Notes under the pieces: generated by a model | What the model was told of the DNA's origin: nothing | The model's database searches: none | The model's input: only the letters and a program-made list of their open reading frames with translations | Shown: piece by piece, positions 3,434 to 31,111 of the stretch | Layout: each line of letters opens with the position of its first letter | Position numbering within the stretch: the stretch's first letter is position 1 | Program-made: the position numbers and the translations under genes | UHGV virus genome: UHGV-0246164 | Direction: 5' to 3' (one strand) | DNA length: 35,288 nt | From: a virus

Positions 3434-3784
3434 TCATTTCACCTTCACGCAGTCGTATGTTGCATACTGACGCGGCGCATCCATGCTGGCTTGCAACCAC
3501 TGTGCGTTGAGAATGGCTTTGCCGTTGCGCTTGATGTACTCAAGCCCAACCCAGCGGCCGGGTTGGTCGGTTGCAACCATCCATTCTGCTTTCATGTTTT
3601 GGTAGTCATCTTTAGACTTGAGAAAAGACATTTTTTGCGTTTCAGGTTTTACCCCGTTAATAAGCATTAGTCCTTCTTTGCCCGCAGTGAGGCGATACGG
3701 CCCGCACTGAGTATCAGCTAAGGCCTCTGACGTGCCGACAACTGATAAAAGAACACCACAAATTAGAAGTTTGGCCTTACCCAT
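3434..3784 (-). CDS. Small secreted (periplasmic) protein of unknown function
   Basis: 116 aa ORF with an N-terminal signal peptide (MGKAKLLICGVLLSVVGTSEALA then DTQCG) and a second Cys near the C-terminus. Overlaps the hub gene stop by 22 nt. Looks lower in GC than the flanks by eye. Confidence 0.55.
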   Translation of the reverse strand: MGKAKLLICGVLLSVVGTSEALADTQCGPYRLTAGKEGLMLINGVKPETQKMSFLKSKDDYQNMKAEWMVATDQPGRWVGLEYIKRNGKAILNAQWLQASMDAPRQYATYDCVKVK

Positions 3785-25965: not shown

Positions 25966-26256
25966 TCATTGCCTTACCTCCATAAGCGCCCTATTAATAA
26001 ACGCCGTCATTGGATTTGCACATCCCCACCCCGTACCATCTGGATTTCTTTTAATTGGCTCCTTCTTCACTTTGCGCTTTGCATAAATAACCATCTTCCA
26101 CTTACGCTCAACAACACTCAAATGCCCTTGTTTCACCATATGCCTTGCTGCTTGAGCGATTCTGTTATTTGGTATTCCGGTGATCAGAGCTAATTCATGT
26201 GGGGAGAATTGTTCATGAGTTTTTAGATATTCCAGGATGATTTCTTTTCCAGTCAC
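25966..26256 (-). CDS. Small winged-helix/HTH-like protein
   Basis: 96 aa with HTH-like ELALITGIPNNRIAQAARHM. ATGA overlap with the DnaC-like stop. Confidence 0.45.
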   Translation of the reverse strand: MTGKEIILEYLKTHEQFSPHELALITGIPNNRIAQAARHMVKQGHLSVVERKWKMVIYAKRKVKKEPIKRNPDGTGWGCANPMTAFINRALMEVRQ

Positions 26257-27146
26257 GATCTGCTCCTGTAACTATCCCATGTAAACGCAAGAGTGCACCC
26301 TCCGCCATCATTCATCCTGTCAATAACACGCTCACCAATGAATGCCGAAAGTTCATCTTTGCTCTGATTACTAATCAGGATTGTTGGCTTCATGTATTCA
26401 TATCTGGTGTTGATAATTTCGAACATGATTAGCTTTTCAGCATCACTGCCGAACTGCACGCCAACCTCATCGATTATTAACAAGTCAGGATGCGTAAATT
26501 GCCTAATGACTTCTTCTTCAGTTCTGGTTGCGGCCTTAGACCATGTTGATTTGTACTCTCTGGCAATTTTCAACGCAGTGGTAAATATCACAGAGCTTTG
26601 ATGCTCGATAATGGCGTGCCTAGCGATAGCCAGTGCAAGGTGGTTCTTTCCAGTTCCAGGCTTACCACACATGACCAGTCCGCCACCTTTTTGAAGGCGT
26701 TCAGGCCACTTACTGGCATATGCCTGGCATACCTTAAGAACTCGCTTTGCATCATCGTTAACAGGCTCATAATTCTGAAGAGTGCAATTTTTGAACCTCT
26801 CTGGAATATTGAGAGAATTCAACAAATATTCAATTTTTGATTGTCTTGCTCTTTGTTCTGCCTGCTCACGTTCAATCTCTTTCTTACGAATTTTCTCCTC
26901 AAGGCACTGTGGGCACTCAGATTTACTTGAAGTAATTCTTTTTCCTGAGATGGTCAGATATTTCTCATAGGAAGTATATTTACCGTGTTTCTCGCACTCT
27001 TCCACTGTGCTGGTAACTGACATTCCATCTGATACTGATCCAATTTTGCTAAACTCAAGTTTCTGTTTCAGATCAGAAATGTCATTGATTTTTGAGTCTA
27101 CAAGTTGCCTTTGCAGTGCCAGATTGTAACCATTTGTCGTATTCAT
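26253..27146 (-). CDS. DnaC-like helicase loader (IstB-like AAA+ ATPase) with N-terminal Cys/His cluster
   Basis: Walker A GKPGTGKNHLA and Walker B LLIIDEVG. Preferred start ATG 27146 with AGGAG 6 nt upstream, 2 nt after the O stop. Confidence 0.8.
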   Translation of the reverse strand: MNTTNGYNLALQRQLVDSKINDISDLKQKLEFSKIGSVSDGMSVTSTVEECEKHGKYTSYEKYLTISGKRITSSKSECPQCLEEKIRKKEIEREQAEQRARQSKIEYLLNSLNIPERFKNCTLQNYEPVNDDAKRVLKVCQAYASKWPERLQKGGGLVMCGKPGTGKNHLALAIARHAIIEHQSSVIFTTALKIAREYKSTWSKAATRTEEEVIRQFTHPDLLIIDEVGVQFGSDAEKLIMFEIINTRYEYMKPTILISNQSKDELSAFIGERVIDRMNDGGGCTLAFTWDSYRSRS

Positions 27147-27148
27147 AT

Positions 27149-27994
27149 TCACTCCTGCGCCCATGAAGGCATTTCAGTTTGCCCGTAATCTTTGGCGGCA
27201 AAGTTTTCCTGCATAGCTCGCTGCTGCGGCCTCGGTTGAGATTTCCCCTTTGGAGTCTTGGGTTCAAAAATCCCCTGCCAACCACTGGCGATGCTCTGGT
27301 TTATAATTTCTTCAGGTGTATATCCCTTCTCCAGACTTCTGCTTAGAACGTTGATAGCCTGAGTGACGCTTTGCTTAGACTTGATCGACTTACCTATCTC
27401 CTTGCGATAGGTAACCCACGACAACCATGTTTCTGCCGATAACCAATCAGGCAACTCTGTTTCTAGCGGGTCGAACTTCTGAGAAATTTTTTTGGGGGAT
27501 ATAGGGGGTTTATTAATATTTTCTTTTGTCTTTAAAGAATGTCTTTTGTGTGTCTCTAACTTCGAGACATTGAGTGTCTCTAATTTGGAGACATTTTTTG
27601 TCTCTAACTTCGAGACAAAGTTGCTAACTTGGAGACACTTGCTGAATTGCCACGCAGATACCTCCCTGTTTACACCGATTTGATTTCCATCCATAAACAG
27701 GCAATTCATTGAAATCAGTTCTTTTTTAGCCTTGTTAACATTCTGCCTTGATAGTCCTGTTAACTGAGCAATTTGCTCATCGGCTATTCGATCTGTTTTC
27801 TTATTGAATCCATATGTTTTCCGGACGTAGGCCAGCATAACTTTCAACTGGCGAGCGGTTAAATCGGCACTTGCGATAGCTTCCAGCAGCTCGTTAGCGA
27901 ATCTGGTGTAACCATCATCGATATCAGCCACTCTTAGCTCCTGTTCGGCAAAGTTACCTCTGCCGAAGTTGAGTATTTTTGCTGTATTTGTCAT
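27149..27994 (-). CDS. O: Replication initiator O-like protein (lambda O-type N-terminal domain)
   Basis: MTNTAKILNFGRGNFAEQELRVADIDDGY... resembles the lambda O N-terminus. The gene contains four iterons translated as VSKLET repeats. The C-terminal part differs from lambda O. Confidence 0.75.
   Translation of the reverse strand: MTNTAKILNFGRGNFAEQELRVADIDDGYTRFANELLEAIASADLTARQLKVMLAYVRKTYGFNKKTDRIADEQIAQLTGLSRQNVNKAKKELISMNCLFMDGNQIGVNREVSAWQFSKCLQVSNFVSKLETKNVSKLETLNVSKLETHKRHSLKTKENINKPPISPKKISQKFDPLETELPDWLSAETWLSWVTYRKEIGKSIKSKQSVTQAINVLSRSLEKGYTPEEIINQSIASGWQGIFEPKTPKGKSQPRPQQRAMQENFAAKDYGQTEMPSWAQE
27551..27636. repeat. Origin of replication iterons (4 x 18 bp) inside the O gene
   Basis: GTCTCTAACTTCGAGACA at 27551 and 27599, GTCTCTAATTTGGAGACA at 27575, GTTGCTAACTTGGAGACA at 27619. 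Each has internal dyad symmetry. An AT-rich tract lies at 27480-27550. Confidence 0.7.
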
Positions 27995-28026
27995 AATGAC
28001 TCCTGTGGATTGATCCAGTAATGACC

Positions 28027-28320
28027 TCAGAATTCCATCTGGATTTGTTCAGAACGCTCGGTTGCCGCCGGGCGTTTTTTATTGGTGAGAATCGAAGCAA
28101 CTTGTCGTGCCAATCGAGCCATGTCGTCGTCGACGACACCCCATTCAAGAACAGCAAGCAGCATTGAGAACTTTGGAATCCAATCCCTCTTCCACCTGCT
28201 GATCTGCGACTTATCAACTCCCACAGCTTCCGCTGTCTTCTCAGTTCCAAGCATTGCGATTTTGTTAAGCAACGCACTCTCGATTCGTAGAGCCTCGTTG
28301 CGTTTGTTTGCACGAACCAT
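28027..28320 (-). CDS. cII: CII transcriptional activator (lambda-type)
   Basis: From ATG 28320: MVRANKRNEALRIESALLNKIAMLGTEKTAEAVGVDKSQISRWKRDWIPKF..., essentially lambda CII as I recall it. Upstream RBS TAAGGAAATACTTACAT also as in lambda. Confidence 0.9.
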   Translation of the reverse strand: MVRANKRNEALRIESALLNKIAMLGTEKTAEAVGVDKSQISRWKRDWIPKFSMLLAVLEWGVVDDDMARLARQVASILTNKKRPAATERSEQIQMEF

Positions 28321-28399
28321 ATGTAAGTATTTCCTTAGATAACAATTGATTGAATGTATGCAAATAAATGCATACACCACAGGTGTGGTTTAATTTGAT

Positions 28400-28431
28400 G
28401 CCCTTTTTCAGGGCTGGAATGTGTAAGAGCG
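28400..28431 (-). promoter_or_regulatory. nutR (boxA + boxB) N-utilisation site
   Basis: Minus strand reads CGCTCTTACACATTCCAGCCCTGAAAAAGGGC, matching lambda nutR boxA/boxB (from memory). Lies between cro and cII. Confidence 0.8.
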
Positions 28432-28439
28432 TTGATAAC

Positions 28440-28670
28440 TTAAGCAGCCATTAATTCAGGCCAGATGCTTTCCCAATCAACCGGATGAAGGTCTTTGCGA
28501 GTCACTTCACCATTGCTGAACTTCTCAATCAGAACACAAAGTGCTGCGCCCAATTCATGATTACGGCTAAGTGCTTTCCTCAAATAGCCGATAGAAGTTC
28601 CGCACTTGGTGGCAAATTCTCTCTGCTCTTCCAGTGAAAGGGAGTTCAGATACAAGCGGAGTTCTTCCAT
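28440..28670 (-). CDS. cro: Cro-like HTH repressor (not lambda Cro)
   Basis: 76 aa with HTH-like segment (EFATKCGTSIGYLRKAL). Divergent from cI across the operator region. AGGAG Shine-Dalgarno upstream. Confidence 0.6.
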   Translation of the reverse strand: MEELRLYLNSLSLEEQREFATKCGTSIGYLRKALSRNHELGAALCVLIEKFSNGEVTRKDLHPVDWESIWPELMAA

Positions 28671-28702
28671 TTGCTATCTCCTTCCCGTTGTTGAATAAGG
28701 TG

Positions 28703-28772
28703 AGTTTACCTGCAGGTAAAAAACAAATCAATACCCACAGGTTATTTACCGATAGGTAATCAAAGATAGAAT
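28703..28772. promoter_or_regulatory. OR region: three operator-like sites with divergent pR and pRM
   Basis: Sites TACCTGCAGGTA (28707-28718), TACCCACAGGTTA (28732-28744), TTACCGATAGGTAA (28746-28759). Candidate pR on minus: TTGATT, 17 nt, TAAACT. Candidate pRM on plus: -10 TAGAAT at 28767-28772, 6 nt before the cI ATG (leaderless). Confidence 0.55.
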
Positions 28773-28778
28773 TAAATC

Positions 28779-29465
28779 ATGGATAAATACGAACAAAGAC
28801 GACTAAGGCTGATAGAGATAAGAGACCGATTCTGTAATGGAAAGGCCTCAGAGTTGGCTCGTCGAATAGAAAGGGAACCATCATACGTTTCCAGAATGCT
28901 GTATCCGGAAGGAAAAAGCGGAAAAAAACGCATTGCTGACGATATGATGGAACTAATTGAAAAATCTTTTAATCTCCCACGCGGATGGATGGACATGCTT
29001 GCAGATAGCAAAGTTGGATCTGCAGACCATCTTGAGTTTGCGGGTAACGTTCGTGCGGGTTTTGTTCCGGTAATTGGTGAAGCCGTTTTGGGAGTTGATG
29101 GCTCAGTGGATATGATTGAATTCAGATCCGGTTGGTTAAGCATCTACAGTGGCGATAAAGATGCTTACGGTCTGAAGGTTAAGGGTGACAGCATGTGGCC
29201 AAGGATTCAGTCAGGAGAATATGTTGTTATTGAACCAAATACGCCAGTACATCCAGGTGATGAAGTCTTTGTAAGGACCAAAGATGGTCATAACATGATA
29301 AAGATCATGAACAAAACAAGAGACGGAGACTATCAGTTTAGTAGTATAAACAGCGATCACCGTCCAATCACTCTTCCTGTTGAAGAAGTTGATAAAATGC
29401 ATTTTGTTTCAGCTATTGTGAAACACACTAGGTACGTAGACCAGGACGATCTGCCAAAATTTTGA
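28779..29465 (+). CDS. cI: CI-type prophage repressor (HTH plus S24 LexA-like autopeptidase domain)
   Basis: 228 aa with a candidate Ala-Gly cleavage site (NVRAGF), catalytic Ser in GDSMWP and a downstream Lys (RTKDG). Divergent from cro. Not lambda cI. Confidence 0.8.
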   Translation: MDKYEQRRLRLIEIRDRFCNGKASELARRIEREPSYVSRMLYPEGKSGKKRIADDMMELIEKSFNLPRGWMDMLADSKVGSADHLEFAGNVRAGFVPVIGEAVLGVDGSVDMIEFRSGWLSIYSGDKDAYGLKVKGDSMWPRIQSGEYVVIEPNTPVHPGDEVFVRTKDGHNMIKIMNKTRDGDYQFSSINSDHRPITLPVEEVDKMHFVSAIVKHTRYVDQDDLPKF

Positions 29466-29479
29466 GGATAAAGCAGCAA

Positions 29480-29776
29480 ATGTTTATACCAGGTATAGTG
29501 GTCGCTGTTGTAATCATCTGCTTCATATGGGCAAAGTTATCTCCTGTAAGCTCTAAGCATACAGCTGAACTCATGAAGAAGAAGCATCTTATACATGAGG
29601 CAGAAACGATAATTAAGAAGTTCAAAGGCATGTCATATGACGACATGTCATCAGATCAGATTGCTATGTATAAATGCGCCATTGAGCGTCTTGACTACTT
29701 AAACGGACTCAAACCCAAACACACCCCGGTAGAATCAAAATTGCCGCAATGGCCAAGCAATCCAAATAGCTTCTGA
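29480..29776 (+). CDS. Single-pass membrane protein co-transcribed with cI (rexAB position)
   Basis: ATG 29480 with GAGGA 11 nt upstream (an in-frame TTG at 29462 overlaps the cI stop). N-terminal hydrophobic segment FIPGIVVAVVIICFIWA, then an 80 aa charged domain. Terminator follows. Confidence 0.55.
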   Translation: MFIPGIVVAVVIICFIWAKLSPVSSKHTAELMKKKHLIHEAETIIKKFKGMSYDDMSSDQIAMYKCAIERLDYLNGLKPKHTPVESKLPQWPSNPNSF

Positions 29777-29787
29777 CATCTCCTTTC

Positions 29788-29810
29788 AGCCCGCAAAGCG
29801 GGCTTTTTTA
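29788..29810 (+). terminator. Intrinsic terminator ending the cI operon
   Basis: AGCCCGC-AAA-GCGGGCT followed by TTTTTTAT, 12 nt after the membrane protein stop. Confidence 0.75.
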
Positions 29811-29830
29811 TATCAATCCAAAAAATTAAT

Positions 29831-29914
29831 TACCTGAAAATTCAAACAGGTAAACTCTCACACCAATTTTATTTACCTGCAGGTATAGACAACAGTTTTA
29901 CCTGTAGGTATATT
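29831..29914 (+). promoter_or_regulatory. OL operators and candidate pL promoter
   Basis: TACCTG-n10-CAGGTA (29831-29852), TACCTGCAGGTA (29874-29885), TACCTGTAGGTA (29899-29910). Candidate -35 TAGACA (29886-29891), 17 nt, -10 TATATT (29909-29914). Confidence 0.55.
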
Positions 29915-29954
29915 TTAAGCCATCAGCAGGACGCACTAACCACCATGAAGGTGA

Positions 29955-29985
29955 GGCTCTTAAAAATTAAGCCCTGAAGAAGGGC
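29955..29985 (+). promoter_or_regulatory. nutL (boxA + boxB)
   Basis: GGCTCTTAAAAATTAA followed by GCCCTGAAGAAGGGC, matching lambda nutL (from memory). Confidence 0.8.
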
Positions 29986-30253
29986 AGCATTCAAAGCAGA
30001 AGGCTTTGGGGTGTGGTGAAGCCAGCTAGTCACTGGCAAGTGCTTACCTACTGTTGAGCGGTGAAGCGCTCCCAACGCTAGCAATAGCGTGGACGAGATG
30101 GGGAGCCGCGGGCGATAAGGCCGCCATAACGCGCACGTTGTCGCATGGAAAAATCGCTGGGGTGCCGGTTATACCCCTCCGAATGAGACTCAACAAGCTG
30201 GAGCTAGACTACCAGCCACCACACCACCAAAGCTAACTGACAGGAGAATCCAG

Positions 30254-30586
30254 ATGGATGCACAAACACGCCGCCGCGAACGTCGCGCAGAGAAACAGGC
30301 TCAATGGAAAGCAGCAAATCCCCTGTTGGTTGGGGTAAGCGCAAAACCAGTTAACCGCCCTATTCTCTCGCTGAATCGCAAACCGAAATCACGAGTAGAA
30401 AGCGCACTGAATCCAATAGACCTTACAGTGCTGGCTGAATACCACGAACAGATTGAAAGCAACCTGCAACGTATTGAGCGCAAGAATCAGCGCACATGGT
30501 ACAGCAAGCCACGCAGTGAAATGGGGGTGACTTGTGTTGGTCGCCAGAAAATGAAATTAGGCAGTAAGCTACTGTATGAGGGGTGA
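30254..30586 (+). CDS. N: Antiterminator N (lambda-type)
   Basis: MDAQTRRRERRAEKQAQWKAANPLLVGVSAKPVNRPILSLNRKPKSRVESALNPIDLTVLAEYH..., near-identical to lambda N as I recall it, including the Arg-rich boxB-binding motif. AGGAG Shine-Dalgarno. Confidence 0.9.
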   Translation: MDAQTRRRERRAEKQAQWKAANPLLVGVSAKPVNRPILSLNRKPKSRVESALNPIDLTVLAEYHEQIESNLQRIERKNQRTWYSKPRSEMGVTCVGRQKMKLGSKLLYEG

Positions 30587-30589
30587 GAT

Positions 30590-30778
30590 ATGCATAAATG
30601 TCAGTTCTGTGGATACATGTTTGAATCAAATGAAATGCAACGTATTTCGTTAAACCTTATCGGTAGGCCATACAACATTTGCCTAGGATGTAGCGAGAAA
30701 TACAAAAACAAAGACATGTGGGACGACAATAAAAACGATATCGACTGGAATAAAGTGCCATGTATTGATGATAGTTAA
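30590..30778 (+). CDS. Small zinc-ribbon-like protein (CxxC...CxxC) in the ral position
   Basis: 62 aa with C4/C7 and C31/C34 pairs. AT-rich. Begins 4 nt after the N stop. Confidence 0.45.
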   Translation: MHKCQFCGYMFESNEMQRISLNLIGRPYNICLGCSEKYKNKDMWDDNKNDIDWNKVPCIDDS

Positions 30779-30826
30779 AAATAATTATGCCGCATAGTCG
30801 GCCTTCTTTTGGCATAAACAACAGAG

Positions 30827-31111
30827 GTGGATATGAAAGAGTTTAAGGGTACGCCTGGTAAATGGAAGTACACGGTTAGAAACGTCAACGAGATGATGAC
30901 TACGTTCCATGGTGTGACGATTGGTGACACATACATTGAAGCAGCAACAAGAAATGAAAGGGAGGATGCGCTACTGATAGCAGCAGCTCCTTATTTGCTT
31001 GAAGCACTGCAAGAGCTTGTCTTCCTTTACGAGCATGACGAAGGGTGCAGAGAGTTAACCGAATACAAACGAGCCAAGGCAGCCATCAGCAAGGCCCTGG
31101 GGGAAGAATGA
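30827..31111 (+). CDS. Hypothetical protein
   Basis: 94 aa ORF. Its TGA stop overlaps the start of the next ORF (ATGATGA). Confidence 0.45.
   Translation: MDMKEFKGTPGKWKYTVRNVNEMMTTFHGVTIGDTYIEAATRNEREDALLIAAAPYLLEALQELVFLYEHDEGCRELTEYKRAKAAISKALGEE

Follow-up and report, generated by a model that had tools for sequence, protein, structure and literature searches.

A small membrane-protein gene behind the cI repressor of a lambdoid virus genome, a candidate for superinfection exclusion

In lambda, the rexA and rexB genes are co-transcribed with cI from pRM and confer abortive infection. The virus genome UHGV-0246164 (the stretch of 35,288 nucleotides (nt) analysed here, which we refer to as the window) carries at the same place a single small gene, and the question that this locus raises is what such a gene may do for a lysogen. 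The gene (29480–29776, plus strand) is the second cistron behind cI and encodes a 98-residue protein of the family phrog_10450, with one N-terminal transmembrane helix. A first-pass annotation, made from the letters alone, had placed it in the rexAB position as a candidate lysogen-expressed exclusion function, and we find this interpretation to be partly supported. The anatomy of the gene and its locus we regard as secure, with high confidence, and the view that it is an accessory gene expressed in the lysogen is strengthened, because a second branch of the family lies in the sieA position behind mnt of P22-like prophages and because the protein evolves faster than the repressor. An exclusion or defence function is plausible by analogy with the occupants of these positions, and better supported than before; if so, this is a new and unrelated family within a known kind, that of the prophage accessory or exclusion genes of repressor operons.

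The second cistron of the cI operon

The immunity region of the window is 97.5% identical to that of phage mEp043, which encodes the same protein (95.9% identity) as mEp043_049 (AFM76460.1, 'hypothetical protein'). A set of 34 close copies, drawn from phage, E. coli and IMG/VR records, represents 12 nucleotide alleles; none contains an internal stop, the polymorphic sites are distributed 5/2/12 over the three codon positions, and the mean pairwise ratio of nonsynonymous to synonymous substitution rates (dN/dS) is 0.17, compared with 0.10 for cI. Homologues at only 25–42% identity all retain the length, the transmembrane helix, the architecture and the motifs, and there is a Shine-Dalgarno sequence (GAGGA or AGGAG) upstream of nearly every family member. 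By these comparisons 29480–29776 is a real gene under purifying selection. The notion that it is a chance open reading frame (ORF) within the cI-terminator spacer, which could appeal to the absence of the gene from the RefSeq pipeline (PGAP) annotation of nearly all 52 carriers among 5426 complete RefSeq E. coli genomes (about 1%), is already refuted by these comparative data, is at odds too with the confident structural model of residues 31–70 obtained from just 10 sequences (see below), and keeps almost none of its probability. In two of the RefSeq genomes, E. coli ECONIH4 and PA45B, only cI is listed under the match, as an 'S24 family peptidase'.

The start codon at 29480 is ATG in 26 of the copies and GTG in the other eight, and it is here that the N-terminus typical of the family, M/V-[YF]-I-[PS], aligns. 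A TTG start at 29462, which would give the 104-residue ORF (29462–29776) of record PV340537, has no Shine-Dalgarno sequence of its own, and is unlikely because both the Shine-Dalgarno sequence and the family N-terminus point to 29480.

The first cistron, cI (28779–29465, plus strand, with its TGA stop at 29463–29465), encodes a 228-residue repressor with an S24 autocleavage domain (Pfam Peptidase_S24, E 1.4e-17; phrog_4, transcriptional repressor, E 2e-32), and its mEp043 counterpart is annotated as cI or prophage repressor. The GAGGA Shine-Dalgarno sequence of the small gene (29464–29468, plus strand) overlaps the cI stop and is followed by an 11-nt spacer to the ATG at 29480. The coordinates of the gene and its GAGGA site are thus as first described; the gap between the cI stop and the ATG is 14 nt and not 15, and the description of the gene as 'translationally linked' to cI was an overstatement, since a 14-nt gap and a separate Shine-Dalgarno sequence point to co-transcription with an independent ribosome-binding site.

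A terminator scan revealed no terminator between cI and the small gene, and a promoter scan identified no convincing promoter for the small gene alone; a candidate promoter internal to cI, which scores 9/12, was rejected because matches of that score occur at chance frequency. The cI-ORF transcript would be closed by the intrinsic terminator AGCCCGCAAAGCGGGCT followed by T6 (29788–29809, plus strand), which lies just before OL/pL, is the counterpart of lambda tIMM, and is as strong as first supposed, with seven pairs (six of them G-C) and a folding energy of −12.6 kcal/mol (z = −3.5 relative to shuffles). It is kept in mEp043; of two more distant loci, L008 has a different hairpin and T-run at the same place and L007 has none. 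The assignment to the rexAB position therefore holds, with the gene between cI and the terminator that precedes OL/pL and co-oriented with the repressor. Because of this shared orientation and the lack of an intervening terminator, the gene is probably expressed continuously in the lysogen from pRM; further expression from pRE would be expected during establishment.

The phrog_10450 family and its two genomic habitats

The best 17-residue hydropathy segment covers residues 1–17 (mean Kyte-Doolittle value 2.84), and we place the transmembrane helix FIPGIVVAVVIICFIWA at residues 2–18 (codons 29483–29533, plus strand). The other 81 residues contain 13 lysines or arginines (K/R) and nine aspartates or glutamates (D/E), in agreement with the early description of one N-terminal helix and a charged remainder. 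The window protein has no K/R before the helix and five in the 20 residues that follow it; throughout the family these 20 residues include between two and seven K/R, and K/R are absent before the helix in 16 of 17 members, the exception having an acidic N-terminal extension (one K, four D/E). Since the K/R follow the helix and none precedes it, the positive-inside rule predicts an N-out/C-in topology, with the conserved domain on the cytoplasmic side. An AlphaFold2 model built from a 10-sequence alignment has a mean predicted local distance difference test score (pLDDT) of 77.5, with ten-residue block means of 86–92 over residues 31–70; it shows one helix at residues 4–47 (the transmembrane segment and its extension), a second at 58–76, and a C-terminal tail, such that the domain of about 75 residues is predicted to be a helical hairpin. 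The conserved motifs of the family are K..LI.EA, Y.CA..RL..L and WP, the last of these lying in the C-terminal tail.

Two other interpretations of the N-terminus were considered and rejected. A cleavable signal peptide is not indicated, as there is neither a basic n-region nor a conserved AXA or signal-peptidase site; and the protein does not resemble a Cor/Llp-type lipoprotein, as it lacks both a lipobox ([LVI][ASTVI][GAS]C) and a positively charged n-region. The N-terminal cysteine is preceded by I-I in the window protein (VIIC) and by F-I in the clade of the P22-like phage N7, and it is missing in some members.

The match to phrog_10450 is full-length (E 1e-55, residues 1–98 on profile positions 1–98), and all 18 of 18 aligned relatives also match this family, which is annotated as function unknown. 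A word-indexed search recovered near-identical proteins only, and a tblastn search of phage genomes identified a relative of 37% identity in N7. When a HMMER profile made from both branches was used against 1.84 billion representatives with a cut-off of E ≤ 0.001, 15 clusters were returned, of which two are spurious and 13 credible; P0027, a eukaryotic protein of leucine-rich repeats that owes its score to summation over them, and P0031, in which the match spans 19 residues of a 4419-residue protein, were rejected as relatives. Full-length members are 97–114 residues long (two shorter sequences are fragments) and have the N-terminal hydrophobic helix in common. Where the source is named it is E. 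coli, Shigella, Salmonella or E. fergusonii, and when one genome was scanned per species, a single representative, an Escherichia sp., had the family.

The profile searches and structure prediction proposed at the outset for this protein yielded no full-length match other than phrog_10450 and no informative fold. Pfam at E ≤ 1 gave only chance-level matches to TTC3 and Chromo_MIT1, and PHROGs gave, besides phrog_10450, only weak matches to families of unknown or regulatory annotation; one of these, to the 'transcriptional regulator' phrog_1077 (E 0.0032), was seen in one of 18 members and was set aside. There was nothing in NCBIfam, PADLOC (0 matches) or a PDB sequence profile search, and comparison of the model with PDB and BFVD by Foldseek gave only matches with E > 1. 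More specifically, there is no match to the Rex family in Pfam, PHROGs or PADLOC at permissive thresholds, no Pfam or PHROG match to the SieB, T4 Imm and Sp or YebO/HK97 gp15-like families (gp15 being compared at the level of profiles), no link to BstA in PADLOC, Pfam or PHROGs, and a probability of only 0.4% when the family profile is aligned with P22 SieA by hhalign. A search of the literature library available recovered no paper characterising mEp043_049 or its relatives, nor any mention of this gene in connection with mEp043 or other mEp phages or among cI-downstream or small membrane exclusion genes. The first-pass view that the protein is not Rex, SieB or another characterised family thus stands, and as judged from sequence the product is a bitopic membrane protein of a very small family, set apart from the Rex, SieB, SieA and Imm families.

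In the loci examined, the family appears to be confined to enterobacterial lambdoid and P22-like prophages or their remnants, where it occupies two habitats. In the first, the gene lies directly behind a cI of the same type, as in the window, mEp043, L007 and L008 (with gaps of 3–4 nt in the latter two), and the order cro, cI, ORF, N is found in 29 of 29 cI-type IMG/VR loci. The second is the interval between mnt and gene 16 of P22-like prophages (N7, L004, L005, L009, L011/L012 and L013), in which the gene is downstream of, and co-oriented with, a repressor gene of the Mnt/Arc family and convergent on gene 16, which encodes an ejection protein. All 24 of 24 N7-type IMG/VR loci are convergent on gene 16, and most have a Mnt/Arc homologue 0.7–2.5 kilobases (kb) upstream; in N7 there is a Pmnt-like promoter before mnt and no terminator between mnt and the small gene. 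The exception is L010, in which the gene adjoins what is left of gp7 and gp20 in a degraded P22-like prophage. Because the second clade follows Mnt, a repressor unrelated to CI, the common denominator of the two habitats would seem to be expression in the lysogen and not any particular switch.

Both intervals are known for other cargo. That between cI and N is a recognised hotspot where rexAB and bstA are found, both served by the repressor's highly transcribed promoter (PMC8585504). On the P22 reference map the interval between mnt and gene 16 is exactly that of sieA; no SieA-like gene was found among the neighbours in the loci of the second habitat, and none of these has a P22-type sieA there. 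Only 22 of 66 P22-like phages carry sieA (PMC10883804). One P22-like contig, IMGVR_UViG_2563366933_000009, contains both paralogs (L026 and L052), a cI-linked copy that is 97% identical to the window protein and a copy in the sieA slot, convergent on gene 16, that is 37% identical. We also note that a gene of the Rap1a family (a type VI secretion immunity family) lies between mnt and the family member in L011 (3641–3988) and L012 (971–1318), and that the mnt-gene 16 interval of L004 contains a gene (2554–2886) for a 110-residue protein with weak similarity to holin and hemolysin PHROGs.

The small protein changes more rapidly than its neighbours. Between the window and L007 or L008, Cro is 89–92% identical and CI 84%, and the small protein is 40–42% identical; within the N7-type clade the small protein is 65–66% identical beside a gp16 that is 85–87% identical. 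By these values the small protein diverges several times faster than the adjoining repressor. The late region of the window (1–21700) is that of a myovirus-type lambdoid, aligning with Citrobacter phage Omnitron over 73% of the query at 95.5% identity and with the vB_EcoM phages at 86%, and the same cI-ORF cassette occurs in this myovirus-type lambdoid, in mEp043 and in one P22-like contig. The window is, on these alignments, a clear case of module mosaicism, and since the same cassette occurs with different virion modules, the gene travels with the immunity module and not with a particular virion. In ECONIH4 an identical cassette lies beside different replication genes, which include a DnaB-like helicase; the window has a DnaC-like P.

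Proposed superinfection exclusion and its alternatives

The function for which the best case can be made, by analogy, is protection of the lysogen, to which we assign a probability somewhat short of even. It is favored because in both habitats the gene lies downstream of, and in the same orientation as, a repressor that maintains lysogeny, in the slots of rexAB/bstA and of sieA, and because the protein diverges rapidly and two paralogs have been kept in one prophage. The protein would be inserted N-out/C-in and would present its helical hairpin and C-terminal WP motif on the cytoplasmic face of the inner membrane, where it would shield the lysogen from superinfecting phages. The likeliest mechanism would be interference with genome entry, either at the conduit formed by ejection proteins or the tape measure or at an inner-membrane host factor that is used. 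The fullest form of this proposal, that phrog_10450 is a new bitopic inner-membrane superinfection-exclusion family in the RexAB and SieA slots that strikes the genome-delivery conduit from the cytoplasmic face, we put forward only tentatively and consider unlikely as a whole. Under it the two paralogs would differ in target specificity, which would explain both the presence of two copies in one prophage and the faster evolution relative to the repressor.

Comparison with known systems shows both the attraction of this analogy and its limits. Like lambda rexA-rexB, the gene is downstream of cI on the same strand and is terminated before OL/pL, and its product, like RexB, is predicted to be in the membrane; it differs in that there is one gene of 98 codons and not two, no RexA-like cytoplasmic sensor, and one transmembrane helix where RexB has four. 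P22 SieA, T4 Imm and HK97 gp15 all interfere with phage genome entry. SieA is located in the inner membrane and prevents P22-like phages from injecting their DNA; it has 162–164 residues, three predicted transmembrane segments and a conserved FxRYPxEAxxFNK motif, and types A–C of SieA have three to four predicted transmembrane segments and about 160–200 residues (PMC10883804). The N7-type clade resembles SieA in occupying the mnt-gene 16 interval, where its genes are convergent on gene 16, and in encoding a small protein predicted to be in the inner membrane. The family differs from SieA in its size (98 residues in the window protein), its one hydrophobic segment and the absence of the FxRYPxEAxxFNK motif from its alignment, and the window copy lies in the cI operon of a lambdoid that is myovirus-type and not P22-like.

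BstA of the Salmonella prophage BTP1 is not a small membrane protein; it shares with the window gene a position immediately downstream of the prophage repressor, presumably with use of the same promoter. This repressor-downstream architecture is conserved across BstA homologues, and BstA acts at the sites of phage DNA replication and has a DNA element for self-immunity, aba (PMC8585504). In being small phage-encoded proteins with N-terminal membrane anchors, HK97 gp15 and T4 Imm and Sp, which block the entry of phage genomes, are similar to the window protein. HK97 gp15, a prophage-expressed moron on which PMC11436027 cites Cumby et al. 2012, differs in lying among the tail genes and not in the repressor operon, and T4 Sp differs in that its domain is periplasmic, whereas that of the window protein is predicted to be cytoplasmic. 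Compared with a moron of the Hendrix type, the small gene has a terminator, no promoter of its own was found by the scan, and its G+C content (40.7%) is close to that of cI (42.2%) and below that of the window (50.2%).

Several considerations weigh against an exclusion function. The literature search gave no phenotype, expression or interaction data for any member of the family. Position in a moron slot is circumstantial, as both slots also hold genes that are not for defence or are unassigned, such as the Rap1a-family and holin-like genes, and a mechanism is not transferable by homology because there is no similarity to known exclusion or defence proteins in PADLOC, Pfam or hhalign comparisons. 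An arms race need not lie behind the rapid divergence, which in a small helical protein could come from relaxed constraint, and the dN/dS of 0.17 among close alleles indicates purifying and not positive selection. The N-out/C-in topology is a prediction only, and a domain that faces the cytoplasm is less obviously placed than a periplasmic one to block injection.

The strongest of the alternatives is that the protein serves lysogenic conversion, as lambda bor and lom do, and alters host physiology in some manner unrelated to phages, for example in envelope stress tolerance, transport, colonisation or virulence. The probable constitutive co-expression with repressors in prophages of E. coli, Shigella and Salmonella would suit such a role, as would the non-defence cargo of both slots (such as the Rap1a-family gene) and the lack of homology to defence proteins. 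We nevertheless consider it unlikely: every locus examined places the family inside a lambdoid or P22-like prophage or a remnant of one, it replaces sieA by position, and divergence so far above that of the neighbouring genes fits an interface that faces phages better than it fits a host housekeeping target.

A second alternative stays within defence and supposes a single-gene abortive-infection effector, an anchored protein that would oligomerise or open the membrane upon sensing a phage and cause a RexB-like collapse of membrane potential. The slot is that of rexAB and bstA, both of them abortive-infection systems (PMC8585504), a single transmembrane helix with a helical hairpin could oligomerise, and the fast divergence is compatible with this role too. 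We judge it improbable. No other gene accompanies it between cI and the terminator, and a RexA-like sensor partner is lacking; one 17-residue helix with no polar face would be a poor channel former; the protein resembles neither RexB nor small toxins or holins; and the slot in P22-like prophages is that of the entry blocker SieA and not of sieB. If the protein does protect the lysogen, a block to entry is thus favored over Rex-like abortive infection, in view of the missing sensor partner and of the difficulty of forming a channel from one apolar helix.

Less probable still is a role in the phage's own choice between lysis and lysogeny, in which the protein would be a membrane-tethered modulator of FtsH/HflKC, and hence of cII/cIII stability, or of induction. 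By position the gene would be co-transcribed with cI from both pRE and pRM, its predicted cytoplasmic domain would be at the membrane, where FtsH acts, and it has been inherited with one cI/cro type over deep divergence. There is also a precedent in lambda RexA, which has been reported to influence the switch; PMC12315714 cites Thomason et al. 2021 for a role of RexA in prophage induction. However, the second clade follows Mnt, a ribbon-helix-helix protein, in the immI region and far from cII/cIII, one prophage carries both paralogs, and the rate of change of the protein far exceeds that of cI, cro and cII.

If members of phrog_10450 do confer phage resistance, they would constitute a compact single-gene exclusion family that has been missed by defence finders (there being no PADLOC match) and by RefSeq annotation. 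The majority of P22-like phages, which lack sieA, may then rely on phrog_10450 instead of SieA, and the family would offer a second and unrelated handle on the passage of ejection proteins across the inner membrane. Should no phage phenotype emerge, it would be one more prophage accessory gene of the ordinary sort. Such candidates are numerous, and the small gene stands out among them through its link to the sieA slot and the gap in RefSeq annotation.

The surrounding immunity region

With respect to the lambda map, the lambdoid immunity region of the window runs from right to left. The minus strand carries the replication genes (26253–27994), a lambda-type cII (28027–28320) and cro (28440–28670); the Cro protein is YdaS-like, with a score (26 bits) under the Pfam cut-off of 30. 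The N-terminal 78 residues of CI (28779–29012) have only PHROG matches (phrog_5736 and phrog_27486) and match no Pfam helix-turn-helix model. In OR, the promoter scan identified a pRM-like promoter, TTTACC-16-TAGAAT (28745–28772, plus strand), to which we assign its role by analogy with lambda pRM. Because it ends 6 nt before the cI ATG, it suggests that the cI message may be leaderless or nearly so, as in lambda.

The operators were located by a motif search. The motif TACCTnnAGGTA has four matches in the 35 kb, which fall only at OR (28707 and 28747) and OL (29874 and 29899), and this number was reached in none of 100 shuffles. Those at OR are TACCTGCAGGTA at 28707 and TACCGATAGGTA at 28747, and those at OL are TACCTGCAGGTA (29874–29885) and TACCTGTAGGTA (29899–29910). 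There is a third OL site, TTACCTG-N10-CAGGTAA (29830–29853), which is a split palindrome, unlike the compact 12–14 base-pair palindromes at the remaining operators; the split form recurs in L007. A pL-like promoter (29886–29914, plus strand), with a score of 10/12, is the best promoter match of the region, and the annotation of JQ182734 has a putative PL at the same place.

Beyond OL/pL, which bounds the slot of the small gene on its downstream side, there is a lambda-type nutL boxB (29971–29985), followed by the N gene (30254–30586). An Rfam search of 28000–31000 returned a single chance match below threshold. In the N leader between nutL and N (30008–30235), the outer long-range stem GGCTTTGGGGTGTGGTG...CCACCACACCACCAAAGC resembles that of the lambda N leader, which is the RNase III site, and the interior differs. 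Related loci vary in how far N lies from the small gene, with N starting at 3617–3775 in the IMG/VR loci.

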